Source of the DNA: Candidatus Bathyarchaeota archaeon
GTDB lineage: Archaea; Thermoproteota; Bathyarchaeia; Bathyarchaeales; Bathycorpusculaceae
NCBI GenBank assembly: GCA_963815095.1
Contig: CAWFFH010000006.1
Location: 64,001 to 128,000 of the forward strand
Reading direction: 5' to 3'
DNA length: 64,000 nt
Shown: positions 1-12,217 of the stretch, piece after piece
How positions within the stretch are numbered: position 1 is the stretch's first letter
How the letters are laid out: every line of letters begins with the position of its first letter
Notes under the pieces: model-generated
The model's input: the letters and a program-made list of their open reading frames with translations, nothing else
The model's database searches: none
What the model was told of the DNA's origin: nothing
Translations under genes and position numbers: made by a program

Positions 1-1
1 T

Positions 2-184
2 TTAATCTCAGCAAGAAAGTTGGGCGCAGCAATTGCAACATTCTCACTGACTTATGCTTTTTGCTTCAACACATTCAACGTCATTTATTTCTCAATCTAC
101 CTGCTTAACGGAACAAGTGCAATCATAAACGCAATAGCTATCACATACATGTTCCGCAGCATTTTTAAAAAAAAGTTTAATTGA
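2..184 (+). CDS. 3' end of a membrane protein (partial, runs off window start)
   Basis: Open frame LISARKLGAAIATFSLTYAFCFNTF...MFRSIFKKKFN* with hydrophobic segments and basic tail; TGA at 182-184. Confidence 0.5.
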   Translation, partial: LISARKLGAAIATFSLTYAFCFNTFNVIYFSIYLLNGTSAIINAIAITYMFRSIFKKKFN

Positions 185-470
185 CTCACAATTTTACAAT
201 ATAATTTAAGTTCAATTATTGAAAATATAATCATGAATTGGCGAAATTTGGAAATGGCACAGAATATTAAATCTAAACCTCGTTTAGAATCTCTCGAAAA
301 AGCTTGATGTGACTGTATTATTTTGTATTCTTCCTTTCAACAAATATACTCCTGACCGGACTTACCAATTTATCGCAAAGAGTGTTAAGCACATATTGAG
401 CTGGATTTACCAATGGGAAGCAAACGTAAATATGTAATATTTCTATTACATGTAATCGTTGCTTACATGT

Positions 471-779
471 ATGTCCAAAATAGAACTGCTGTCAACGAAA
501 CTAAAGGCATTATCTCATCCAATGGCCTTGAAGATAGTAACCCTGTTGGCTAAGGAAGGCAAAGATATGTACCTAAATCAAATAGCCAAATGTATAGGAA
601 TCAACAGGGCGCTAGCAAAAATACACCTAAAAAAGCTAGAACGAGGTGGAATAGTTAAAAGTAGAGTAGTTCTGGTTGAAGGAGAAGCGCTAGCCCTCAG
701 ATACTACAAACTTGAAGACTTTAAAATCCATGTATCTCCTGAAGTACTGAAGAAGGAGGGAGAAGAATATGAAAAGTAA
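471..779 (+). CDS. ArsR/SmtB-family winged-helix transcriptional regulator
   Basis: KLKALSHPMALKIVTLL...YLNQIA...AKIHLKKLERGGIV HTH signature; ATG at 471 preferred over TTG 459. Confidence 0.85.
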   Translation: MSKIELLSTKLKALSHPMALKIVTLLAKEGKDMYLNQIAKCIGINRALAKIHLKKLERGGIVKSRVVLVEGEALALRYYKLEDFKIHVSPEVLKKEGEEYEK

Positions 780-1059
780 AAACCTAATAGTTCTAAGTGT
801 CTGGTCAGCGGTTACAATAATATTTTCGTTACTTATTTCGCTAGGAGCAATTTATAGTGATAATGCTACACAATGGCTAATAACGATGTTTGATGACTGG
901 TGGATTGTATTTTTGATAACCTTGGTCTTTACGGGTATTGTTAGTTACTTAGTCAAAGAACAGGAAGTTAACGTGCAACTCAATTTTCAAAACATTGGAA
1001 CAAAGTTAGATTCGCTCACTAAAGAAGTTGCGGAAATAAAGAAAGCAATCGAAGATTAG
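769..1059 (+). CDS. Small 2-TM membrane protein with C-terminal coiled coil, coupled to the ArsR gene
   Basis: Two hydrophobic helices, overlap with upstream ORF end, purine-rich SD-like GGAGG upstream. Confidence 0.7.
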   Translation: MKSKNLIVLSVWSAVTIIFSLLISLGAIYSDNATQWLITMFDDWWIVFLITLVFTGIVSYLVKEQEVNVQLNFQNIGTKLDSLTKEVAEIKKAIED

Positions 1060-1189
1060 ACTAAAAGATGTGCTTCAATTCTTGCTTTTCTCATTTTCTA
1101 ATGATAACCTTAACCGATTTTGTCCCTCTGAGGATAAGTCTCTATCTATATCGCCCTTGAACTTGTGGATGCTTTTGAGCTCTTATTAA

Positions 1190-1228
1190 GGGATGTTAAA
1201 TTTACACCAACGGTTAAATTCCACACGA
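1190..1228. repeat. att-like repeat, copy of 3177-3215 (35/39 identical), beginning with degenerate tRNA-Ser 3'-end sequence
   Basis: gggatgttaaatttacaccaacggttaaattccacacga vs gggatgttaggtttacacccacgtttaaattccacacga. Confidence 0.8.
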
Positions 1229-1587
1229 AACCTATTCAGCAAGGTGAGCCAGACTAGGTTTATCTCAAAAGAGTCTGAGTCCCCAGCCAAAATGCTACTT
1301 TGCCTTTGCTTTGGTAGCTTGGAGATAGATTCCAACCTCTAGAGCAGTATTTGCAAGTTGCAGTTGGAGAGTTGAGCATTTTTGGATACCTATTCCTGTC
1401 AATCAAAATTTAGATAGAGGAATTGCTAAGACTAATGCACTCGTTAAAATATCTATAATTAGATTTATGAGGATTCAATTTAAAAACTAATTAAACTATA
1501 ATAGTTAAAGCCCAATCAGACAGTGTTAGCTTAATTACGATCACATAGTCATATAAAATTAATGCCAGTTAAATTAAACTGAGTTAG

Positions 1588-2658
1588 ATGAGTGAAAAAG
1601 ACATGATTCAATGCAAGGGTTATTCTGCTCAAGACCCAAAAAGTGTTCTAAAACCGACTGAGTTTATTCGTCGCAGTCCCAGTCCTTACGACATATCAAT
1701 GGATATTCTATACTGTGGAGTTTGCCACACTGATTTGCATCAAGTACGAAATGAATGGAATGGCACTCTGTATCCCTGCATGCCAGGTCACGAGATAATT
1801 GGCCGCGTAACATCAGTAGGTAACAAAGTTACCAAATTTAACGTTGGTGACGTAAGCGGGGTAGGCTGCATGGTGGACTCGTGTCAACATTGCGAGAATT
1901 GCAACAATGGACTAGAACAATATTGCCTTAATGGCGGCCCAATTTATACATATAACAGCCCTGAAAAAGGATTTGATAGACCAACTTTCGGTGGATACTC
2001 AAACAAAATGGTAGTAACAGAAAGGTTTGTGGTGAAGATTCCAGAAAACATGGATCTCAAAGCAACGGCACCGCTGCTTTGCGCAGGAATAACCACTTTC
2101 TCACCTATGCAACACTGGAAAGTAATAGCCGGACAAAAAGTCGGTGTTGTCGGTATAGGCGGATTAGGCCACTTGGCCGTCAAAATAAGTAAAGCTAAGG
2201 GAGCAAGTGTAACTGCCTTCACCAGTTCACCCCAAAAAATGTCTGACGCAAAACGGCTTGGGGCGGAACAAGTTTTTCTGGAGACGGATGATCAAGCCAT
2301 TAAGAAGATGACAAGAACTTTTGATTTTATAATTTCAACCATTCCCCAAGCCTATGATATTAACCCTTACCTTGAGATGCTAAAAGTGAACGGTACGTTT
2401 GTTAACGTTGGCGCAATGGATCGTTTAGAACCTGGTATTAATGGATGGGCTTTAGCTTCCTCGCGTCACAGTTTAGCGGGTTCGACTATCGGCGGTATGC
2501 CTGAAACTCAAGAGGTCATCAACTTCTGCTCCGAGTGTGGCATCAAAGCGGACGTGGAGGTCATTCCGATACAGAAAATTAACGAGGCATTTGAACGCAT
2601 TAAGAGTCGTGATGTACGATATCGCTTCGTAATTGACATGTCGTCATTAACACCTTAG
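1588..2658 (+). CDS. Zn-dependent NAD(P)-dependent alcohol dehydrogenase (cinnamyl-alcohol dehydrogenase / YahK-AdhC family)
   Basis: CGVCHTD, PGHEIIG, structural Zn motif CQHCENCNNGLEQYC, APLLCAGIT, GIGGLG, YRFVID C-terminus. Confidence 0.95.
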   Translation: MSEKDMIQCKGYSAQDPKSVLKPTEFIRRSPSPYDISMDILYCGVCHTDLHQVRNEWNGTLYPCMPGHEIIGRVTSVGNKVTKFNVGDVSGVGCMVDSCQHCENCNNGLEQYCLNGGPIYTYNSPEKGFDRPTFGGYSNKMVVTERFVVKIPENMDLKATAPLLCAGITTFSPMQHWKVIAGQKVGVVGIGGLGHLAVKISKAKGASVTAFTSSPQKMSDAKRLGAEQVFLETDDQAIKKMTRTFDFIISTIPQAYDINPYLEMLKVNGTFVNVGAMDRLEPGINGWALASSRHSLAGSTIGGMPETQEVINFCSECGIKADVEVIPIQKINEAFERIKSRDVRYRFVIDMSSLTP

Positions 2659-3170
2659 AATTAGGTTTTTTTGACCGAGGTTGCTATAGAAAGACTCCTC
2701 GCTATGCTCGAAGACGAAATTATCATGCGTTGGCCCAAAATAGGGTAAGGGCGTGCTTTTAAAGCGTGATAATTAGATTCTTCAAAGTGATGAATTGTTG
2801 AAAACACTTTTTTCCTTAGAAGAGCTAATTTGTAGTGGCGGGGACAGGGTTAACCCCGGATGAGTTTGAGACCCAGGCACTCGATTGCCCATTTAAGCCT
2901 TTTTCTCCGATTTTGACCGAAGTTTAGAGCTACCGTCCCCTCATTAACGGGTTCAAAACCTTTAATGAATATTTGTTTGAATGATTTTTCAGTAAGCGCT
3001 GAGCGGGGGTGGATTCTAACGCCAATTTGCCAGTAAGAATGCATTTTGCCTGGTTCGCGTGGAATTTAAACACAAGGTCTAAAGCGGTATATGTCCAAAA
3101 CTTATGGACAAAAATTAGTCACAATGACCGAAAATAGGCTAAATATATGGCTGAATTTGAAAAATAAGCT

Positions 3171-3215
3171 TGGCGCGGGATGTTAGGTTTACACCCACGT
3201 TTAAATTCCACACGA
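3171..3215 (-). repeat. Degenerate duplicate of tRNA-Ser 3' end (att-like) plus conserved flank
   Basis: tggcgcgggatgt (13 nt) identical to 9481-9493, and acccacg in the same register as the tRNA T-arm; flank ttaaattccacacga also at 1214-1228 and inverted at about 3055-3071. Confidence 0.8.
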
Positions 3216-3373
3216 GATATCAAAAGTTACAATATCTCGAACATCGACCAGAGTGAGCCGGACCGAACTTCCCCAAACGGGGCTGAGCCTCGCTTCGTCT
3301 CCTGACAAGTCTCCAACTGCAAGCAATTCCCTTTTTCTTACAAGTGTTCAGTAATAACAAACTAAGTCTAGAG

Positions 3374-3464
3374 CTGGGGATGGGCTTTTGAGTTGAAATA
3401 CGATTCCCTACCCCGCTTAGATTTCAAGGGAGAGGTTTGCATGCATATTACCGATCCTCCAGTA
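3374..3464. repeat. About 90 bp intergenic repeat, copy 1 (copy 2 at 8761-8853)
   Basis: ctggggatgggcttttgagttgaa(a/g)tacgattccc(t/g)accc ... ttaccgatc(c/g)tccagta shared. Confidence 0.85.
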
Positions 3465-3656
3465 GTAAAACTGGTTTATAAAATTGATCATCGTTCTCCA
3501 ATAGGGGTTGGATTCGAATTCTAGATCTGCAAATTTTTTGCCTAACATACCCATTGATAATCACCTGTGTAATTCATTTTATGGAAAATTCCTTTTATAA
3601 ATTGTGAACTCTCTTTGTCAAAAGAATTATTAATCAAGCAAGCGAGTAGTGTTGGC

Positions 3657-4067
3657 ATGAAGAAATCTAACGTAATAGTGATTGCAGTTATTGCGGTTGT
3701 AGTAGTGGTCTCAGTCGTCGGCGCTATGGTTTTCACTGGAATGATGAACTCTATTTTCTCGGCCAATGGCCCCCCTGAACTCAAAGAAGCTTCTGTAGCA
3801 ATCAGTGCTGGAGGAGGATACAATAGCCAGACAGGCATGTTTGATTTGCAGATCAATGCTCAAAACATGGGACAAAAAGACGCCAAGAACGTCAGAGTTG
3901 ACGTCACCTTCTTTAATGTTGACACTCAGGCAGAATTAAAGACAGAAACAATAACTATCGGCGATGTTTCAGCAGGAGGTTCTAAGGACCTCAGTACATC
4001 TGTCCAAGTTCCAGACGGCTCACCACTGGTTTCATGCAGAACTGGCACTCCTGTATGGGACGACTAA
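3657..4067 (+). CDS. Membrane-anchored extracellular Ig-like (CARDB/FxLYD-like) protein
   Basis: MKK plus long hydrophobic N-terminal helix; NMGQKDAKNVRVDVTFF...IGDVSAGGSK beta-sandwich pattern. Confidence 0.65.
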   Translation: MKKSNVIVIAVIAVVVVVSVVGAMVFTGMMNSIFSANGPPELKEASVAISAGGGYNSQTGMFDLQINAQNMGQKDAKNVRVDVTFFNVDTQAELKTETITIGDVSAGGSKDLSTSVQVPDGSPLVSCRTGTPVWDD

Positions 4068-4288
4068 ACAAACACTGAAATTCCTTTTTTTAATTTAGCC
4101 TCAAGAAACGATTGAACAGTTGCAAAGTCTAAAGAAAAGACGGCGGACAACATCCGTATTTGATTTGATGCACGCTTTCAGGACTAAAGAAAAGTACATA
4201 TTCGCACGGGAGTACCCGCTGGGATGCGCTTAATAAGCGGATCCTTTCTCCAACATACCCGTCGGAACCCTTACAGTTTTGCTTATAT

Positions 4289-4353
4289 TGGTGCAGGGGG
4301 TGGGATTCGAACCCTCTGGGAATTGAAAAATCACCCGCGCAATCCCTTTTTTC
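4289..4353 (-). repeat. Orphan tRNA 3'-end fragment (tRNA-Leu-like T-arm, acceptor strand and CCA) with conserved tcacccgc..atcccttttt flank
   Basis: Reverse complement of 4289-4314 is GGGTTCGAATCCCACCCCCTGCACCA; no anticodon or D arm follows; related copies at 3503, 6985, 7076, 7896 and 8715. Confidence 0.85.
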
Positions 4354-4433
4354 TTTAGAGCCTGATTGTAATGCAGACTACTTGCCTAAGGTGACTGAGA
4401 GTTCCCTTCAATGAATCGTAAAGCCTAACAAGC

Positions 4434-6872
4434 TTAGCGTTTGAAAAGGTCCTCGGGAGTCATTAGACGTTGCAATATGATGTATGCTGCCTTTTTATCT
4501 AATGGTTCGTTCCCATTTCCACATTTAGGCGAGTATATGCATGATGGGCAACCTTCTTTGCATTCACAGGCTTCAATCAACTTTAACGTTTTTTCTAGTA
4601 GCGTTTTTATGTTTGAAAAGAGGTTTTCTGAAATACCAATTCCACCCTCAAAACCATCGTAAATAAAGACTGTTGCTTTTCCTGTGTCCATATGCACAGC
4701 TGTTGACATTCCACCTATATCCCATCGGTCACACATTGCAAACATTGGTGACATAGCAATAATGGCGTGTTCAAGAGCATGCAATCCACCCTCGAAATTC
4801 AAGCCTTTATCTTCTATTTCTTCTCTGATCAGTTCAGGAACAATAAACCACATACCTACCGTTGAGAAAGACGAAGAGGGCAAATCAAGCGTATGTTTTT
4901 TGATGATCACATCGTTGGATTTTACTACATATGAAGGATAATTTTCAGTGATTGTTAATTCGCCCAAAGCAGTTTCGAGGTCTTTTTTTGTTTCCTCCAA
5001 TGTTTTCTTGATTGATACTTCAACGGTTTTTTGGGTTTCAGTATAATAGTTGGTGCTCTCTTGGCGAACCTTAGCGGTGAAATTGTTGAGATCTAGTTCT
5101 TCTGAGCAGTAGGTTTCACCTTGATGTAGAAGAATTGCTCCTATATGGGTTTCTTCATAAGCCTTGTTTAAGGGAAGCGTTTCAAGAATACGCCCATTGC
5201 AAAGTACATTTACTGTCTTTCCGCTAATACTTTCAAGGTTAACAACTCTAGTTGCCTTTTCCAGCCCAGAGTAAGTCCAACCTTGAAAAGTTTTTTTCAG
5301 AAGACCTTTTTGTGCAAGGGCTTGAACGCTTTCTTTGAAGAGCTCTGGAAAATATTTTTGGTCAGAATCGGTAAGGGGCAGCTCGTCAGCTGCACACATA
5401 ATATGGCCTGAAGTAATTTGCCGATTGTGCAGATTAATGATCGCTTGTTCATGTGGTCTATCAAAGAAGTCTTGTGGATGCTTCATAAAATATTGATCAA
5501 GAGGGTTTTGGAAAGCAACCAAGGTTACGGTTGAATCATTTTTACTTCTACCTGCACGTCCAGCTTGTTGCCACGTAGAGATGACTGTCCCAGGATAACC
5601 CGAAATTATCACTGAATCCAAAGAACCTATGTCGATGCCGAGCTCTAATGCATTTGTTGAAACCAAACCGATTAAGTCCTTGGTTTTTAGACGATTCTCT
5701 ATGTCGCGTCGTTCTTGAGGAAGGTAACCTGCCCTGTAGGCAGTCACTGAACTATAAAGTTTAGGATTTCTTCGTTTTAGGTCTTCTTTAGTCCATCTTG
5801 TTATAAGCTCAGCCATTTGCCGTGAGGTTGTAAAGCAGAGGGTTTGCAAGTTTTTCATTACGCTCACTGTTAGAAGGTCTTTGGTTTCTTGATGGGTTGA
5901 GCGGCGGATTGTTTTTTGTGGGTTAATGAAAGGTGGATTCCAAAATACGAATGATTTTTTACCTCTTGGGGAGCCGTCGTTTGAAACTATTTCAAAATCT
6001 TTTCCAGTTAGTTTCTTTGCATGTTCTTGTGGATTAGCTATGGTTGCTGATGAGAGTATGATTTGGGGGTCCGAATGGTAAAAACTGCAGATTCTTAGCA
6101 GTCTTCGTAGAAGCATGGCTACGTTTGAGCCAAAAACGCCTCGGTAAACATGCGCTTCATCAAGTACGACGTAGCGTAAGTTTTGGAAAAAAGATCGCCA
6201 GAGATTATGCCAGGGAAGGTACAGATGCAAACCATAAGGGTTAGTTAAAATTATTCTGGAATTTTCCCGTATGAATGCCCGCTGCTCTTTTGGTGTGTCA
6301 CCATCGTACACGTTAGAATCTGCTTTAATGCCCGTACCTTTCTCGATTTCTTGTAAAACTTTGAGCTGATCATTTGTTAGAGCTTTTGAGGGATAAATGA
6401 AGAGTGCTGTTGCTTTTTTATCGTTTGTGAGGGCATCAAAAACGGGGATATTAAACGCCAAAGTTTTTCCTGAAGCCGTGGGGGTAGTAATAATTACATT
6501 TTTGCCTTGTCGTGCTTTGTTTATGGCTACTGCTTGATGGGAATAGAACTTAATTTTCTTATTCTGCAAATAAGTGCTTATATTTTCTGGAAGGGCTTTT
6601 TCAAGCTCTCCAAAACATGGGTCTTGTGCAGGAATTTCTTGAATGTGTGCAATAGAGTTTTGTGGGGTTTGCACTTTTTGCGGGATAATTTCTTTCTCTG
6701 GCAAGTTCACTGTTTTAGATTTTAACGAATTATTGATTGAGGAGGGTCTGAAATTATTTGGTTTGCTACCTCTTGTAAGAAAGGTGCCGCATTCTTTGCA
6801 GAATAAGCTCTGGGTATATTCCTGATGTGAGTGGGTTCTGCCACATTTTTTGCAATAGTATGAAATTGGCAA
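4434..6872 (-). CDS. SF2 DEAH helicase with DUF1998/MZB domain (Hrq1/SftH/YprA-MrfA family) and N-terminal Zn ribbon
   Basis: TPTASGKT, DEAH, SAT, YRAGY, TNALELGIDIG, QQAGRAGR, C-terminal CECKEGCPSCIYSPKC; N-terminal CKKC..CKEC. Confidence 0.95.
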   Translation of the reverse strand: MPISYYCKKCGRTHSHQEYTQSLFCKECGTFLTRGSKPNNFRPSSINNSLKSKTVNLPEKEIIPQKVQTPQNSIAHIQEIPAQDPCFGELEKALPENISTYLQNKKIKFYSHQAVAINKARQGKNVIITTPTASGKTLAFNIPVFDALTNDKKATALFIYPSKALTNDQLKVLQEIEKGTGIKADSNVYDGDTPKEQRAFIRENSRIILTNPYGLHLYLPWHNLWRSFFQNLRYVVLDEAHVYRGVFGSNVAMLLRRLLRICSFYHSDPQIILSSATIANPQEHAKKLTGKDFEIVSNDGSPRGKKSFVFWNPPFINPQKTIRRSTHQETKDLLTVSVMKNLQTLCFTTSRQMAELITRWTKEDLKRRNPKLYSSVTAYRAGYLPQERRDIENRLKTKDLIGLVSTNALELGIDIGSLDSVIISGYPGTVISTWQQAGRAGRSKNDSTVTLVAFQNPLDQYFMKHPQDFFDRPHEQAIINLHNRQITSGHIMCAADELPLTDSDQKYFPELFKESVQALAQKGLLKKTFQGWTYSGLEKATRVVNLESISGKTVNVLCNGRILETLPLNKAYEETHIGAILLHQGETYCSEELDLNNFTAKVRQESTNYYTETQKTVEVSIKKTLEETKKDLETALGELTITENYPSYVVKSNDVIIKKHTLDLPSSSFSTVGMWFIVPELIREEIEDKGLNFEGGLHALEHAIIAMSPMFAMCDRWDIGGMSTAVHMDTGKATVFIYDGFEGGIGISENLFSNIKTLLEKTLKLIEACECKEGCPSCIYSPKCGNGNEPLDKKAAYIILQRLMTPEDLFKR

Positions 6873-6984
6873 TTCTTTCTACTTTCAATTACTTATATTG
6901 TTATAAAAGCGCTATTGCCAAAATCCGCTTTTTATGCATTCAAGTACTGGAACTATGCTCCACAATAGTCCGTTCGTTTTAACG

Positions 6985-7122
6985 TGGTGTAGGGGGTGAT
7001 ACGAACCTTCTGAGTATAGATGTTTATGCGGTAGGTTGAGTCCAAACCCAATGGCTCCAGCGAGAGCGGAACACTTTGAACCACATACCAGTGGGGATAT
7101 CACCCGCATAATCCTTTTTTCC
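6985..7122 (-). repeat. Two degenerate copies of the tRNA-3'-end-derived repeat (6985-7012 and 7076-7122)
   Basis: tggtgtagggggtg--atacgaaccttctg vs tggtgcagggggtgggattcgaaccctctg (4289); tcacccgcataatccttttttc vs tcacccgcgcaatcccttttttc. Confidence 0.7.
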
Positions 7123-7141
7123 ATACGGTGTTATGGCACGG

Positions 7142-7840
7142 TCAAATCTCAAAGCTGAAAGAAACGAAGCCGCCTTGCCTATGGGTAGAAAGCCAAAAAG
7201 TATAGTTACCAGAAGGCAAAGTGGTGTTAAAGTTAAAAAATAAAGTCTTTTCATTTCCAGGCGGTAGCTTGTAAAGGAAATTCATTGTCCAAATAGGCTG
7301 TCCCGTATTGTCTGTCTTAGTAGACTCCACCCAGTCGCTATTAATTTGTGTCACAATGGTTTGATTGTAAGCCTTAATGAATGCCGTATCAAAAGCGATT
7401 TCATAGTAGTAAGAGGATTTTGCCTCAACTGAGAATGTGAGTGGGTTAGTGCTTTCTAGTCTAAAATCGGTTATTGCCAGTTTTTCCGTTTCTTGGGATG
7501 AGAGAACAGAAGATGATAAAACAAGAGTTCCGAAAACGAGCAATGGAATTAGAACAGTAATAAGTATAGCGAAAATAGCTCTGTGCTTCTTAATAGACAG
7601 AACAATAATGCCGAGCATCCCAACCGTAATAAGTGCTGTTCCAGCTATTAGAGTGAAAAAGAAGAAAGAATTAAGCCCTGACCATTCAAGATATGAGTCG
7701 CCCAGAAATCTCTGGACTGTCAGAAGCTCAACCGACCATGTTTGCTCCCAATAGAAAACTATAAAGAAAATGGCTAAAATGACAGCGCCTAAAGCGGTTA
7801 AAGCTCCAAACAAGTACTTTGAATATTTTAAAATTAACAA
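7142..7840 (-). CDS. Hypothetical membrane protein (3 TM plus C-terminal extracellular beta domain)
   Basis: Three hydrophobic helices then LPSGNYTFWL-type Ig-like tail; likely TTG start at 7840 because the upstream ORF extension runs into a repeat. Confidence 0.65.
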   Translation of the reverse strand: MLILKYSKYLFGALTALGAVILAIFFIVFYWEQTWSVELLTVQRFLGDSYLEWSGLNSFFFFTLIAGTALITVGMLGIIVLSIKKHRAIFAILITVLIPLLVFGTLVLSSSVLSSQETEKLAITDFRLESTNPLTFSVEAKSSYYYEIAFDTAFIKAYNQTIVTQINSDWVESTKTDNTGQPIWTMNFLYKLPPGNEKTLFFNFNTTLPSGNYTFWLSTHRQGGFVSFSFEI

Positions 7841-7895
7841 TCTGTATCGTGACAGATATGATATAAGGTTTCTGAGGCACCCCCTGGCAAGTTGA

Positions 7896-7953
7896 GCAGC
7901 CGTGGCATCGAACCCTCTGTAAATGGAGATGTCACCCGCACCACCCCATTTTT
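7896..7953 (-). repeat. Degenerate copy of the tRNA-3'-end-derived repeat
   Basis: cagccgtggcatcgaaccctct...tcacccgcaccaccccattttt. Confidence 0.65.
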
Positions 7954-8046
7954 GGCTATTCAGGGGACGCACGAGAACATTTTTTCACTTATCAAGAATG
8001 AACAAACCTAATAAATTATATATTACTATTCACTACAAGAGTTGCC

Positions 8047-8703
8047 ATGAGAAAGACAGTAATCTCACTAATCACAATAGCAGCATTGGTGCTTGTATGT
8101 GGCATCCTTCCCGCAGAAGCGCAATTGGCTCAGGAAACTACAATCAGCGTTGACATGAGGTACAGCGTCGCCGACTCACCATATATGGAGCAGTATATTA
8201 CAGCTATGCCTGGTCAAGGAATTGAAATTACTCACAGACTATATAATCCATCAAACGAATCAGAATCCACCGACATACAAGTAACCTACTCCATAGTGCA
8301 GGGACAACAAATCATAAAGCGTTTTGATGTAGGTTCACGTTTCTATCCAGAAGACAATATAGCTAATGTTCTGGGAAACAATTACTTCCCATTTCAGTAC
8401 GACCTTATTCCAAATGGCACTGGAACCATTGAGATAAGATTTTACGATAACGGCACACTGCACAACATAGATGGAACAACGCGTACTTTTAGTAACGACA
8501 TGAGCTTTTCGGATATTACAATCAACATGGAAAATCCAACAAATGTGGCCTTAAATAACATACCTTTGTTTGCGTGGGTAGGACTAATTCTTCTTTCAGC
8601 TTCAACAGTTGGTCTAAGTGTAGGACTTCTTGTTATGCGAAAAAAATGGACAAAACAAGAAGAACCCACTCAAAACAACGTTTCAATTAAGTCAGTTGAT
8701 TAA
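8047..8703 (+). CDS. Secreted/surface hypothetical protein with C-terminal TM anchor
   Basis: Signal peptide MRKTVISLITIAALVLVCG..AEA; N-X-S/T sequons; TM followed by RKKW. Confidence 0.75.
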   Translation: MRKTVISLITIAALVLVCGILPAEAQLAQETTISVDMRYSVADSPYMEQYITAMPGQGIEITHRLYNPSNESESTDIQVTYSIVQGQQIIKRFDVGSRFYPEDNIANVLGNNYFPFQYDLIPNGTGTIEIRFYDNGTLHNIDGTTRTFSNDMSFSDITINMENPTNVALNNIPLFAWVGLILLSASTVGLSVGLLVMRKKWTKQEEPTQNNVSIKSVD

Positions 8704-8714
8704 GCTGATAAGAT

Positions 8715-8853
8715 CAGCCGTTGGGGATCCGAACCCTCTACATCCATGTCAGAATCTGTACTGGGGATGGGCTTTTGAGTTGAAGTACGATTCCCGACCC
8801 GTTTAAAATTCAAAAGAAAATGCTTTGATACATTATTTACCGATCGTCCAGTA
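8715..8853. repeat. tRNA-like repeat (8715-8739) followed by copy 2 of the about 90 bp repeat (8761-8853)
   Basis: cagccgttggggatccgaaccctct, then ctggggatgggcttttgagttgaagtacgattccc. Confidence 0.75.
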
Positions 8854-8925
8854 AAGGTAAATGGAGAAGTTAAATAACTTAAATTAAATAAATTCTATTT
8901 TGTTAATTCCTCAAAGGAGTGTGAA

Positions 8926-9232
8926 ATGTTTTTGACTTACATTCGTTGTTCTATAGGAAAGTGGCGTATTGACCTTTATTCTTCTGAAGCTGAGGCGATT
9001 TTTGGAAGGATAAACGATGAAGGAGTTAGACTGTTTCAGGAGCAGTCAGGGTTTATAAGTTATAGACTGATGCGGGCTAGCAATGATGTTACAGTTGCCA
9101 TCGCTGAGTGGGAATCGGAAGAACTAGGCAGGGCGGGTGCGGAGAATTACAGAAAATGGTTAAGGGCGAGCGGTATCTGGAATAAACTAGTTCTCACGAC
9201 TTATGAAGGCGAAGCTCGTAGCTTCCTCATGA
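8926..9232 (+). CDS. ABM (antibiotic biosynthesis monooxygenase-like) dimeric alpha-beta barrel protein; apparent +1 insertion near 9215 extends the ORF to 9327
   Basis: QSGFISYRLM..VAIAEWESEE; paralog of 24400-24699; removing one base gives TYEGEVVASS*, matching the paralog's TYDGDVVALS*. Confidence 0.7.
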
Positions 9233-9480
9233 ATTTGAATTCAAATTTACAGAATGAGTTGGAAAAAGAGAGATTTAATCAAGGTGCTCGAAGGATACTG
9301 GCGCAAATTTCCAGAAAAAAATGCTAAGAACGAGCGGTACCAGGCTTAACCACAAAGCTTGGGCCAAATTTGAGTTGGCGTGGCTTCAAACACTAGACCG
9401 AATGGAGTAACGCATTTATTAGGAAAATAATTTAGGCTCAGTTTCTAAAATTAACGGTAATAATCAGCTGAATTTGGAAA

Positions 9481-9567
9481 TGGCGCGGGATGTGGGAATT
9501 GAACCCACGCGGCCTTTCGACCACAGACTTAGCAGGCCTGCCCCATACCAGGCTTGGGGAATCCCGC
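9481..9567 (-). tRNA. tRNA-Ser(GCT), CCA encoded
   Basis: GCGGGAT/ATCCCGC acceptor stem, anticodon loop CT-GCT-AA, long variable arm, GGTTCAATTCC T-arm, discriminator G. Confidence 0.95.
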
Positions 9568-9730
9568 ACGCCTCAAGTTCAGCCAATCCATTATACTGTA
9601 TTTCAATTAAACCTTTCTGGGAATTAAAACTAGTGGATTCACCAAGCTATTTCCTGCACATGATTTACCATTAAATCTAAATCGGGGCACGCAAGAATAA
9701 ATAAAGAAATAACCTTTTTCAGGAATCAGT

Positions 9731-10102
9731 ATGGCGCCTAAAAAACAATTCAATACCATAGATGAATACATAGCTACTTTCCCACAAAATATCCAGAAGA
9801 TTTTGGAAACGATTAGGCAAACAATCCATGAAGCTGCCCCCCAAGCAAAAGAAGCTATAAGCTATCAGATGCCCGCCTTCAAACAAAACGGAATTTTAGT
9901 GTGGTTTGCGGCGCACAAAAACCACATCGGATTTTACCCAAGAGTATCCGCTATCGAGACCTTCAAAGAGGAATTGCGCGATTATCAGGTAACTAAAGGC
10001 ACGGTTAAATTCTTCTTAGACAAGCCTATTCCTTATGATTTGTTGAAGAAAATGGTGATGTTTAGAGTTAAGGAAAACCGGGAGAGTAGTCAAAAAAAAT
10101 AA
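9731..10102 (+). CDS. DUF1801 / YdhG-like domain protein
   Basis: TIDEYIATFP..IRQTIHEAAPQAKEAISYQMPAF..FAAHKNHIGFYP..KGTVKF..PIPYDL. Confidence 0.9.
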   Translation: MAPKKQFNTIDEYIATFPQNIQKILETIRQTIHEAAPQAKEAISYQMPAFKQNGILVWFAAHKNHIGFYPRVSAIETFKEELRDYQVTKGTVKFFLDKPIPYDLLKKMVMFRVKENRESSQKK

Positions 10103-10139
10103 AAGAAATAAGAACAGAAAATTCTATCAGCTATTTTAG

Positions 10140-10637
10140 TTATGATGCTTTGCCGTCTTTGCAGAAGTAGATGTTTGGTCTAGCTTTGGCGAGGTTGAAG
10201 TCTTTAAAAACTTCGCATTCGCTGCAAATACACATCTTGCCGAAATCAAAGTCTTTGCATGGGGCAACCCCGTTGGCGCAGTAGGGTCCAGGCATATCTT
10301 CCGGTTTAGGAATCATCTTTAATGAACTATTATTTGACATGTTTTTCATCATTTCATTACTCATACTTTTTTGCTGCTCCCTCGACATTTTCATCATCAT
10401 TTCAGGAGTCATGTTCTTCATCATTTCAACGTTCTTCATCATTTCGGAACCTAAAATATCCTGCACATTTCCTGAGTTCATTTTATTTATCATGTCATTT
10501 CTTGCCAAAATTTTGGGTTTGGCGCATTCGCTGTTTTTTTGTACGGCGCAGTTAACACATTGGCACTTCGTTATTACATCATAAGTTAATGTTACTTTAG
10601 GCTGTGTTTTATGACCAAAAAAATCCAAAAAATTCAC
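10140..10637 (-). CDS. Cys-rich DUF2769-like protein with a Met-rich insertion
   Basis: CQCVNC..C ... YCANG..C..CICSECEV..YFCKDG pattern interrupted by a roughly 60 aa Met/Lys/Asn-rich segment. Confidence 0.65.
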   Translation of the reverse strand: MNFLDFFGHKTQPKVTLTYDVITKCQCVNCAVQKNSECAKPKILARNDMINKMNSGNVQDILGSEMMKNVEMMKNMTPEMMMKMSREQQKSMSNEMMKNMSNNSSLKMIPKPEDMPGPYCANGVAPCKDFDFGKMCICSECEVFKDFNLAKARPNIYFCKDGKAS

Positions 10638-10882
10638 CTTATTCCAATATAAAATATAAAAAAACCCTCAATTAAAGTTTGCTCCCGACGCTGTTTGGCT
10701 AACCTAAGGGGGTCAACGACTCTGAAAACCATGTTCTATATGTCCACACAGCCTTGATATTGGAACTCTACCCTTTTGAGGAAGGAACTTTGCGTTAGGC
10801 GTCAATATAGTTTAAAAGGGTGACCTTGTTAACTATTCTCTTGCAGGTTTTCCTGCGTTTATGAAAATGTGTTGGTGCCTGA

Positions 10883-11314
10883 ATGGGGATTAAACTTTCA
10901 AAGTCCGATATAGCGTTTATAAAACAGTTACCAGTTTGTCGTCTTGCAACCGCAACCGAAGAATGTGAACCCGTTGTGAGACCTATTTGGGCGATTTTTG
11001 ATGGAGCAAACATCTACTTTGCATCTGACCCTGACACCCCCAAATTGGAACATATAGAAGCAAACCCTCAGGTATCACTGGTCTTTGATGATTACGACCA
11101 AAAAAACTGGTCAACCATCAGAGGCGTCCGCGTTCAAGGCGAAGCAGAAATTATGTTAAATGGCAAAGAATACCGTTACGCTCATGATCTTCTTAAAGAA
11201 AAGTATCCTGAGTATGCGAGTCCTGAAGGCAGCTGGAAAGAAGGCGATGTGCCTATTATTAAGGTGATACCTACGACTTTTAATAAGTGGTCTTCAGGAA
11301 AATGGCAAAAATAG
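10883..11314 (+). CDS. Pyridoxamine 5'-phosphate oxidase-like (PPOX class, flavin/F420-binding split barrel)
   Basis: VCRLAT...P.VRPIW...KLEHIEANPQVSLVFDDY..W..RGVRVQGEA...LKEKYPEY. Confidence 0.85.
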   Translation: MGIKLSKSDIAFIKQLPVCRLATATEECEPVVRPIWAIFDGANIYFASDPDTPKLEHIEANPQVSLVFDDYDQKNWSTIRGVRVQGEAEIMLNGKEYRYAHDLLKEKYPEYASPEGSWKEGDVPIIKVIPTTFNKWSSGKWQK

Positions 11315-11437
11315 TTTTAATTTAACCAACAAACCACTTTTCAAATCTGTTTTTCGGGTTTTTCCTTTTTGACTAAAGCGTGCCTACGGAAAAGCTTATC
11401 CCTAAACTGTATCTTATAGCAGTTGAGGGCTCAGTCT

Positions 11438-12217
11438 ATGTCACTTGAATCAGGCAGAAAACTAGGGTTAATCGCAAGTTTAATACAGGTTATCTTGCCA
11501 ATTGTGGCGGTTGTCGGAATAGTTGCTTTAGTCATATCGGCATTAGTCGCATCAGTATCAAGAACCACCATGGGCATACCTGCCGCTCCAATTTTTGGGT
11601 TCTCAGTGGGTCTAGTTGTTTTCTTTATTGCTGTGGGCGGTTTAGCCCTTATCGGATTTACCCTCTTTTTAGTGTCGATGCACCGCCTATCCATTTATTA
11701 CAGTGAGCCGTCAATTTTCAAGAATGTGCTATACGCATTCATCGTGAGTATCGTTTCTGGGGTAGTCTTTTTTGTTTATGAATTTGTCTTTGGGTCCTGG
11801 TCATTTGGGGGTTCACAAACCGGAGCAACACCAGCCCTGCCCATTCTATCCATTTTTGGCGTATTAGGAATAAGTCTTGTCTTCAGCATAATCAACGCAG
11901 TTCTCTACATGCAGGCGTTTAACAAGTTAGCGGAGAAATCAGGCGTCGATAATTTCAAATCGACCGGCTTGCTGTACTTAATTGGAGTTTTGACGGCAAT
12001 CTTGTTTTTTGGCAGCTTGTTGGTTTGGATAGCATGGATTTTCGCCGCCCAGGGATTCAACAAACTTAAGCCAGCTCCAATAGTAACCCAAAATGGTTCC
12101 TACTTTACCCCACCGCCACCGTCAACTACGTTGCAAACCAAGCATTGCTCCAACTGCGGAACAGAAAATAGCGCCGACTCTCTTTACTGCACTCACTGCG
12201 GCAAACCACTACAATAG
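11438..12217 (+). CDS. DUF996-family membrane protein with C-terminal zinc ribbon
   Basis: Multiple TMs, LS.YY.EPSIFKN and LAEKSGVDNFKSTGLLYLIG motifs; CSNCG..YCTHCG. Confidence 0.85.
   Translation: MSLESGRKLGLIASLIQVILPIVAVVGIVALVISALVASVSRTTMGIPAAPIFGFSVGLVVFFIAVGGLALIGFTLFLVSMHRLSIYYSEPSIFKNVLYAFIVSIVSGVVFFVYEFVFGSWSFGGSQTGATPALPILSIFGVLGISLVFSIINAVLYMQAFNKLAEKSGVDNFKSTGLLYLIGVLTAILFFGSLLVWIAWIFAAQGFNKLKPAPIVTQNGSYFTPPPPSTTLQTKHCSNCGTENSADSLYCTHCGKPLQ

Follow-up and report, generated by a model that had tools for sequence, protein, structure and literature searches.

Integrase-less gene modules between co-oriented, tRNA-derived attachment sites form a strain-specific island behind tRNA-Ser(GCT) in a Bathyarchaeota genome

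We analyzed a 64,000-nucleotide stretch of a Candidatus Bathyarchaeota archaeon genome (hereafter the window; positions 64,001 to 128,000 of contig C6 in the studied assembly, G000, of 2.69 Mb in 9 contigs), in which a tRNA-Ser(GCT) gene on the minus strand (9481-9567, tRNA search) anchors an island of small gene modules separated by tRNA-derived attachment (att) sites. Bathyarchaeia are abundant archaea, hardly represented in culture, whose accessory gene pools are large. The att-site array is real and well supported, and what sets it apart is the small size of its units, the use of one conserved arm across tRNAs, the nesting of three site types and a named candidate integrase. Its sites are likely scars left by mobile elements whose usual targets are serine, leucine and cysteine tRNA genes; the elements themselves were likely stacked, trimmed and exchanged between tRNA loci. 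At a probability of roughly 0.65, we read the island as a strain-specific set of integrase-less modules built by repeated insertion at tRNA 3' ends and deletion of integrase genes, likely with exchange of blocks through a shared T-loop. The anatomy on which this reading draws is plain: three site families, one of which (A) has an arm that also bounds integrase-bearing elements, junctions that fall at the T-loop, and cargo that varies.

The island spans ~240 to 9480 (~9 kb) and holds eight significant sites, three of family A, two of family C and three of family B, all on the strand of tRNA-Ser. An earlier note, made from the sequence alone, had described one family of decayed tRNA 3' ends between 2990 and 9567. 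The array itself stood, but there are three nested families in place of one, Ser-type (B), Leu/T-loop (A) and Cys-type (C), and the Ser-type sites at 3171-3215, 1190-1237 and 240-304 and the Cys-type sites at 3374-3432 and 8761-8816, found here by iterated profiles, had been missed; with them the island reaches to ~240, and across the next 34 kb beyond that site there is no A, B or C site with E < 0.1. The three copies that the note had grouped by a common non-tRNA flank were recovered by an A profile of 26 rows (shared flank plus T-loop) from which the three window rows were excluded, at 7907-7953 (E 2.7e-14), 4303-4355 (E 1.4e-10) and 7075-7120 (E 4.2e-9). The next window match scored E 0.74 and the best across 20 shuffled windows E 0.093, and all flank-sharing sites do share the orientation of tRNA-Ser, as had been claimed. 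No integrase or integrase remnant was found in window positions 1-12000, where the only zinc ribbon seen belongs to a helicase, and integration or transfer genes are absent from the modules (Pfam families; integrase search over 1-12000). The island's content is strain-specific: a tblastn search of the tRNA-Ser loci of 19 relatives turned up not one of its 8 genes (absent from 19 of 19), and the genes that flank the island were found in up to 8 of these loci.

At 4289-4314 (minus strand), within the A site at 4289-4355, lies an intact 26-nt leucine tRNA 3' end, identical at 26 of 26 positions to tRNA-Leu(TAG) on contig C3. This is the cognate gene that the note had proposed to look for, and the orphan is the genome's only 26/26 match of its kind. 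An Rfam scan returned only tRNA-Ser and a weak tmRNA-tail match at 4289-4338. The decayed copies fared unevenly. As bare tRNA ends none rises above chance (expected number per shuffled region 0.3 for the copy at 8711, 0.64 at 7890, 0.85 at 2997 and 2.2 at 6983, with 3503 outside the top 22), and generic tRNA-end scoring was rejected as proof of decayed copies because it is not significant; two copies are nonetheless rescued by their context. The one at 6985-7007 (minus strand), which borders the helicase module on its 5' side, matches the leucine end at 21 of 26 positions with a 2-nt gap (by eye), and in a relative (G007) this helicase is preceded by a 25/26 Leu core in the equivalent position, with which it aligns. 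The copy near 3503 forms the left end of a 145-bp unit without genes (3374-3520, minus strand), which has a Leu-type T-loop half-site at one end and, at the other, a C arm with its Cys-type core (3374-3384), and which recurs end to end at 78-86% identity at 7 other loci (5 genomes in all). At these other loci it always follows an A arm, and the sequence beyond the Cys core varies; the unit links a Leu-type to a Cys-type site and may serve as a vehicle by which mixed blocks travel. The proposed copy at 8715 is not a separate site, since it belongs to a conserved stretch after Cys-type cores, and the copy at 3003, for which no homolog was found, is unconfirmed.

The A arm is widespread. Run as a sequence-only model, it matched 454 times in 51 of 61 genomes of the genus, with as many as 34 matches in one genome, and it was found in 51 of 91 genomes of the order, representing 33 of 47 genera. 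The studied genome carries 12 more A, B or C sites outside the island, 6 of them within 9 kb behind tRNA-Leu(TAG), tRNA-Ala(TGC) or tRNA-Cys. At the T-loop the arm passes either into a tRNA end (Leu, Ala, Pro, Cys, Arg and others) or into recurrent continuations that are not tRNA, and at two loci (L301 and L304) the displaced core is unlike the anchoring tRNA. From metagenomes we took 80 of at least 122 loci with the exact A pattern as sole criterion, leaving 79, many of them short, after one duplicate was dropped; 60 go on into the 3' end of a tRNA (with 11 different best-match labels), further A sites occur in 25, all 39 of them co-oriented, and 8 contain integrase fragments, none whole. Arrays of A sites stand behind tRNAs, for example six in 11.5 kb behind tRNA-Leu(TAG) in G011. 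Among loci picked for A matches, 92 intervals end in an A site, of which 85 are at most 8 kb long, with a median of 1602 bp. These 85 intervals contain no open reading frame (ORF) in 8 cases, one in 30, two in 16 and three or more in 31; an integrase trace is lacking in 73, a stub of 87-299 nt is present in 11 and a near-whole gene in one. At L096 (8868-8882), one of two exceptions to co-orientation among the A intervals, two A arms face each other across a single T-loop-like core. On the strand opposite to the tRNA, the arm finishes with a run of T (e.g. window 4342-4352, plus strand), placed to terminate convergent integrase or neighboring cargo transcripts.

The candidate integrase family combines an InsA-type zinc ribbon with a Phage_integrase domain. 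Its genes lie convergent with a tRNA within 600 bp in 33 of 61 loci (24 Leu, 3 Ala, 2 Arg, 2 Cys, 1 Pro and 1 His), and these targets agree with the cores found on A sites. Four integrase-bearing elements, of 1.8 kb (L145), 3.3 kb (L158), 4.8 kb (L172) and 6.1 kb (L098), are closed at their right-hand end by an A arm; the smallest consists of the integrase and one 72-codon ORF only (by eye). A provirus-like, 24-kb contig from a viral collection (L282), which carries tail-like genes, terminates in an A arm and a Leu-type core (6001-6050). In the window, the stretch after the Leu core (Leu-type left arm, 4250-4288, minus strand) resembles by eye the left arm of such elements, from tRNA-Leu to the integrase stop, with no blastn match. 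Integrase C-terminal stubs directly behind tRNAs or cores indicate how deletion yields integrase-less modules. The studied genome has four Pfam integrase matches; of its zinc-ribbon family members, one is full-length but long-branched and lies 5' of tRNA-Pro(GGG), one is N-truncated and at least six are fragments, placed with a quick tree of long branches used solely for these copies. With its members long-branched, truncated or fragmentary, no resident helper is evident for the Leu-type sites. The note had proposed that an integrase encoded elsewhere serves the array; the assembly contains no intact integrase of the Leu-targeting clade, so any helper would have to be an incoming element.

Several observations concern this integrase family and its surroundings. 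The A arm was considered as the start of the zinc-ribbon integrase and rejected, as those genes start elsewhere; matches beside arms were likewise rejected as integrase N-terminal remnants and are small stand-alone zinc-ribbon ORFs. Such ORFs (~40-65 aa), which resemble the integrase N-terminal ribbon, lie just inside element ends (L047:585-713; L044:~2915-3112; L020:~200-340; G000 C1:2161-2322 and C3:999790-999945), and are candidates for a directionality factor. Beside the A arm of the 6.1-kb element, a 384-aa ORF (L098:10752-11906) with no Pfam or NCBIfam match could be a replication protein. Some members of the family (G000 C6:9302-10732, L152 and L177) lie upstream of a tRNA and co-oriented with it, which suggests insertion into the 5' part of the tRNA.

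The B sites end in the last 13 bases of tRNA-Ser (window 3171, 1190 and 240), and they point to a second kind of integrase, found in relatives, whose reading frame runs out of the tRNA 3' end. In six elements of this kind (five at tRNA-Ala(CGC), one at tRNA-Gln) an ATG or GTG stands in frame ahead of the far tRNA copy (by eye). The B arm opens with GTG in 32 of 40 copies and ATG in 3 of 40, the frame is open in 35 of 40, that frame agrees with the intact C-terminal part behind tRNA-Ser in G123 (L233/L262) but not with the broken one in G001 (L232), and B sites close two Ser elements that have a C-terminal integrase part (L262 and L024). On these grounds the B arm is likely the N-terminal stub of a split integrase of the SSV type, comprising its start codon and the few codons after it, and the outer Ser-type sites of the island likely derive from elements with such integrases; the B modules of the window have no C-terminal integrase part. 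Elements with split SSV-like integrases, 4-15 kb in size, occur in Bathyarchaeia at tRNA-Ala(CGC), tRNA-Gln(TTG) and tRNA-Ser(GCT) (L262, L267-L271 and L274), and a broken split integrase lies behind tRNA-Leu(CAG) in the studied genome (C3:9999-10850). The C sites (window 8761 and 3374) end in an 11-base tRNA-Cys-type core. Their arm was also considered as the start of a split Cys integrase and rejected, as its open frame differs from those of two Cys C-terminal parts (by eye).

Five cargo genes between 3374 and 9481, three on the plus and two on the minus strand, are as the earlier note had described them: an immunoglobulin (Ig)-like anchored protein, a helicase, a membrane protein, a secreted protein and an ABM-domain protein. 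The Hrq1/MrfA-type DEAH helicase (4434-6872, minus strand, 812 aa; Pfam DEAD, Helicase_C, WHD_HRQ1 and MZB) is a second helicase copy in its genome. Its copies in G007 and G013 (87% and 84% identity) both sit amid tRNA-Leu-type sites, in the former after a Leu core and in the latter 9 kb behind tRNA-Leu(TAG) and 760 kb from tRNA-Ser. Of 11 helicase loci, nine (70-73% identity) lack a tRNA fragment at the gene edges and are probably the resident copy. The membrane-protein gene (7142-7840, minus strand, ~232 aa, start inferred from homologs) has homologs of 72-80% in four genomes and a contig-end piece in a fifth; in G059 and G124 its start directly follows a Leu-type core, and in G031 it begins behind tRNA-Ala. 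The ABM-domain gene (8926-9327, plus strand, 133 aa; Pfam ABM E 9e-4, below cut-off) has a 73% homolog between two A sites in G072. The secreted protein, predicted to be membrane-anchored as well (8047-8703, plus strand, 218 aa, no family), has no DNA homolog in 119 genus genomes. Atlas searches gave leads below 0.9 or no match. The Ig-like membrane-anchored gene (3615-4067, plus strand, 150 aa) has weak DUF7490/DUF11 matches.

To relate module boundaries to the sites, we compared 194 loci with A sites, taking homologous segments of at least 250 bp and 78-99% identity. Of 128 distinct segments, 21 stop within 75 bp of an A site in both partners; in the null of 300 shifts the mean was 0.12 such segments and the highest count 2. 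The enrichment of breakpoints in the repeats that the note had predicted is thus borne out, but only one segment is bounded at both ends and 20 at one end. That segment is a module of 555 bp with a single gene, which G011 and G062 share among different neighbors and which is found in part in five more genomes including G000. A 680-bp module that appeared end to end in G003 and G072 was rejected, being part of a 940-bp common block of two modules. Modules at 94-97% identity sit in differing contexts. With clean two-ended moves of single genes so rare, and one-ended sharing and integrase stubs common, the decay of once autonomous elements fits at least as well as the capture of free one-gene cassettes that the note had proposed; its identification of the sites as tRNA-derived attachment sites of tyrosine-integrase elements, with integrase-less modules and strain-specific content, is supported.

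Under our preferred reading of insertion, deletion and exchange, small elements of Bathyarchaeia would insert repeatedly and site-specifically at tRNA 3' ends, each newcomer pushing older modules farther from the tRNA. Deletion of an integrase gene would leave a left arm, cargo and a right arm, a remnant like a cis-mobilizable element (CIME). The integrase of a visiting element could then insert at old junctions or excise between them, and blocks could be exchanged among tRNA loci through the common T-loop: T-loops are nearly the same in these tRNAs, so an incoming integrase might act at old junctions and in this way nest Leu and Cys blocks within a Ser island. Here a Ser-type module (9480 to 3171) would enclose a Cys-type block (8760 to 3374), which in turn would enclose the A-type modules. 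A number of points weigh against this account. The order of nesting is inferred, being a reading of the order of the sites; the link between integrase and A arm is one of co-location in four elements only, most of the 61 integrase loci have no A site within 10 kb (of the DNA covered), and no cognate integrase is assigned to the C arm. The cargo is not uniformly tied to sites: the Ig-like gene's nine homologous loci, in eight genomes, are near no A, B or C site, the ABM gene is near a site in only one of three homologous loci, and the 3' flanks of the membrane gene and of the helicase differ from those in relatives. In the breakpoint comparison, about one third of the 21 pairs involve the 555-bp module, so that pairs are not independent; the A arm itself can extend an alignment up to the site; the loci, like those of the interval statistics, were selected for A matches; and two-ended bounds are nearly lacking. 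No excision, circle or empty site was seen; four contig sets spanned the region in pieces without a joint, at a depth of 1-4 that is too shallow to show one.

The same data can be read in two further ways. The array may be a working analogue of an integron, with maintained single-gene cassettes (left end, cargo and A arm) excised as circles and reinserted in trans at T-loops or array junctions, a possibility that we hold tentatively and rank clearly lower. The conservation of the arms across 454 matches in 61 genomes, the single ORF in 30 of 85 A intervals, the end-to-end recurrence of the 555-bp module among other neighbors with partial copies in five more genomes, the eight occurrences of the gene-less 145-bp unit, and the recurrence of left ends that fail to restore a tRNA, and hence would be insertable only at array junctions, all speak for it; the stubs in 11 of 85 intervals instead imply deletion from autonomous elements, two-ended bounds occur in one segment and one-ended bounds in 20, the assembly has no intact Leu-clade integrase, and neither IntI nor a hairpin was detected. 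Stated for the class as a whole, and no more strongly, Bathyarchaeia might possess a double-stranded counterpart of the integron, made of one-gene cassettes and gene-less adaptors, with the T-loop as universal crossover and visitors with zinc-ribbon integrases loading, unloading and swapping among tRNA arrays; if so, any virus or element with such an integrase could swap cassettes among arrays at many tRNA genes. Quite improbable, by comparison, is that the sites are nothing but scars of old insertions whose modules have ceased to move site-specifically, their Leu, Cys and Ser types having been mixed by homologous recombination or rearrangement between similar arms. Decay at window sites 240, 1190, 3503 and 6985, six or more integrase fragments in a genome where the Leu-clade gene is never intact, and the predominance of one-ended sharing would all suit such scars, yet the core at 4289 is identical to the host tRNA at 26 of 26 positions, modules of 94-97% identity stand in different contexts, and junctions fall at the T-loop with differing sequence beyond, a point that homologous crossovers of 50 bp would not single out.

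Comparison with known systems places the array closest to remnants formed by accretion. As in CIMEs of streptococci (PMC5704250), which have lost integration genes and kept attL and attR and in which newcomers insert at a resident att site to form tandems, co-oriented att sites flank the modules on both sides, integration and transfer genes are absent, and autonomous elements with the same ends exist; the present units differ in being archaeal, in their median of 1.6 kb and often single gene, in arms found on many tRNA types, in three target types nested in one island and in having no conjugative helper identified. The ssrA islands of Dehalococcoides (PMC3146451), of which 15 lack an integration module, are likewise tandem, with 3' direct repeats, an upstream conserved motif and crossover in the T-loop, but they involve a serine recombinase and a single tmRNA target, in contrast to tyrosine integrases, many tRNA targets and smaller units here. 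Tycheposon islands of Prochlorococcus (10.1101/2020.12.28.424599) are also seeded by tRNAs, with partial tRNA copies, fragmented integrases and polar growth; their integrases are island-specific, whereas one arm family here serves several tRNAs and most intervals have no integrase trace. The 'suicidal' SSV-type integrases of Thermococcales and Sulfolobales (PMC7253208, whose main text does not contain 'Bathyarch') are similarly split by an att site at a tRNA 3' end. Those of the relatives studied here use tRNA-Ala(CGC), -Gln and -Ser(GCT) and have a very short N-terminal part (~13-25 codons) co-oriented with the tRNA, of which the window would retain only the stub (the B arm) of a putative SSV-like integrase. 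Integrons, including archaeal integrons and clusters of attC sites lacking integron-integrases (CALINs; 10.1101/2022.02.06.479319), likewise consist of short ORFs in an array with recombination sites between them, often in an integrase-free neighborhood. The integron-like platform of the earlier note is nevertheless not sustained: the best TIGR02249 (IntI) match in the genome scores 25 bits against a cut-off of 265 (candidate family members, 30-53 bits), folding the A-site alignment of 29 rows (arm plus T-loop) gives 3 pairs and -0.21 kcal/mol, no attC covariance model being involved, and genes lie on both strands. Lacking IntI, a conserved hairpin and a common gene orientation, and having tRNA-derived cores, the array does not pass as an integron or CALIN.

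Tandem integration has been noted for archaea (PMC8371274, PMC6563490), and PMC11697101 mentions variable regions and a provirus. Our literature search found no paper on these arrays, although the supplement of PMC11697101, which lists further variable regions and was not covered, may bear on that claim, and the literature searched offers no account of how Bathyarchaeia acquire genes at them. Islander filters demand an integrase of the unit's own and at least 2 kb (PMC4383910), and units without an integrase and mostly below 2 kb (median 1.6 kb) are skipped. The mechanism becomes testable in vitro with a candidate integrase family, minimal autonomous elements (1.8-6 kb) and precisely defined arm and core sequences, and a tyrosine integrase that accepts many tRNA T-arms, if true, would be a useful tool. 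Split SSV-like integrases in Bathyarchaeia widen the range of that family.

The remaining features of the island complete its layout. Next to tRNA-Ser lies the non-coding left end of a Ser-type module (9350-9480, minus strand), matched at 75-88% over 93-143 nt in 10 other loci, after tRNA-Ser or B sites. The C site nearer to the tRNA (8761-8853, minus strand, profile E 2.5e-22) consists of the conserved arm and a tRNA-Cys-type core (8761-8771), followed by the left end of a Cys-type module (8717-8760, minus strand), which includes the supposed 8715 copy and is found after C cores in 8 of 9 other matches. Two A sites (7908-7953 and 7075-7121, both minus strand) each join the conserved arm to a T-loop half-site, and the former continues into a recurrent non-tRNA left end (7878-7907, minus strand), which is matched at 90-93% behind A arms at two places in G072 and in G001. 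Farther from the tRNA, the innermost B site (3171-3215, minus strand, E 1.4e-20) carries the conserved arm and the last 13 nt of tRNA-Ser(GCT), and the next, with a decayed core (1190-1237, minus strand, E 1.4e-12), is separated from it by a zinc alcohol dehydrogenase gene (1588-2658, plus strand; Pfam ADH_N and ADH_zinc_N) that is absent at the tRNA-Ser loci of the 19 relatives. An ArsR-type helix-turn-helix gene and a small membrane-protein gene form a cargo pair (459-1059, plus strand), and the decayed outermost B site (240-304, minus strand, E 1.2e-8) marks the distal end.

Some minor observations were made in passing. An inverted half copy of the B arm lies at window 3048-3072 (plus strand, E 7e-4), and short tRNA-Pro-type T-arm-like stretches, not significant, flank the dehydrogenase gene on the opposite strand to the sites (1272-1290 and 2862-2885, plus strand). 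Elsewhere in the genome, two near-identical tRNA-Leu(CAG) genes (C3:10857-10942 and C9:37431-37518) reflect either duplication or bin contamination (4.2% reported), and three intron-bearing tRNAs missed or mislabelled by ARAGORN (C3:~1217590-1217675, ~1109560-1109673 and 1442754-1442876) are probably Leu(TAA), Tyr and Leu(CAA). Outside the island, window 10140-10637 (minus strand) holds a 165-aa ORF, Met-rich and Cys-rich, with short internal repeats and a weak DUF2769 match.

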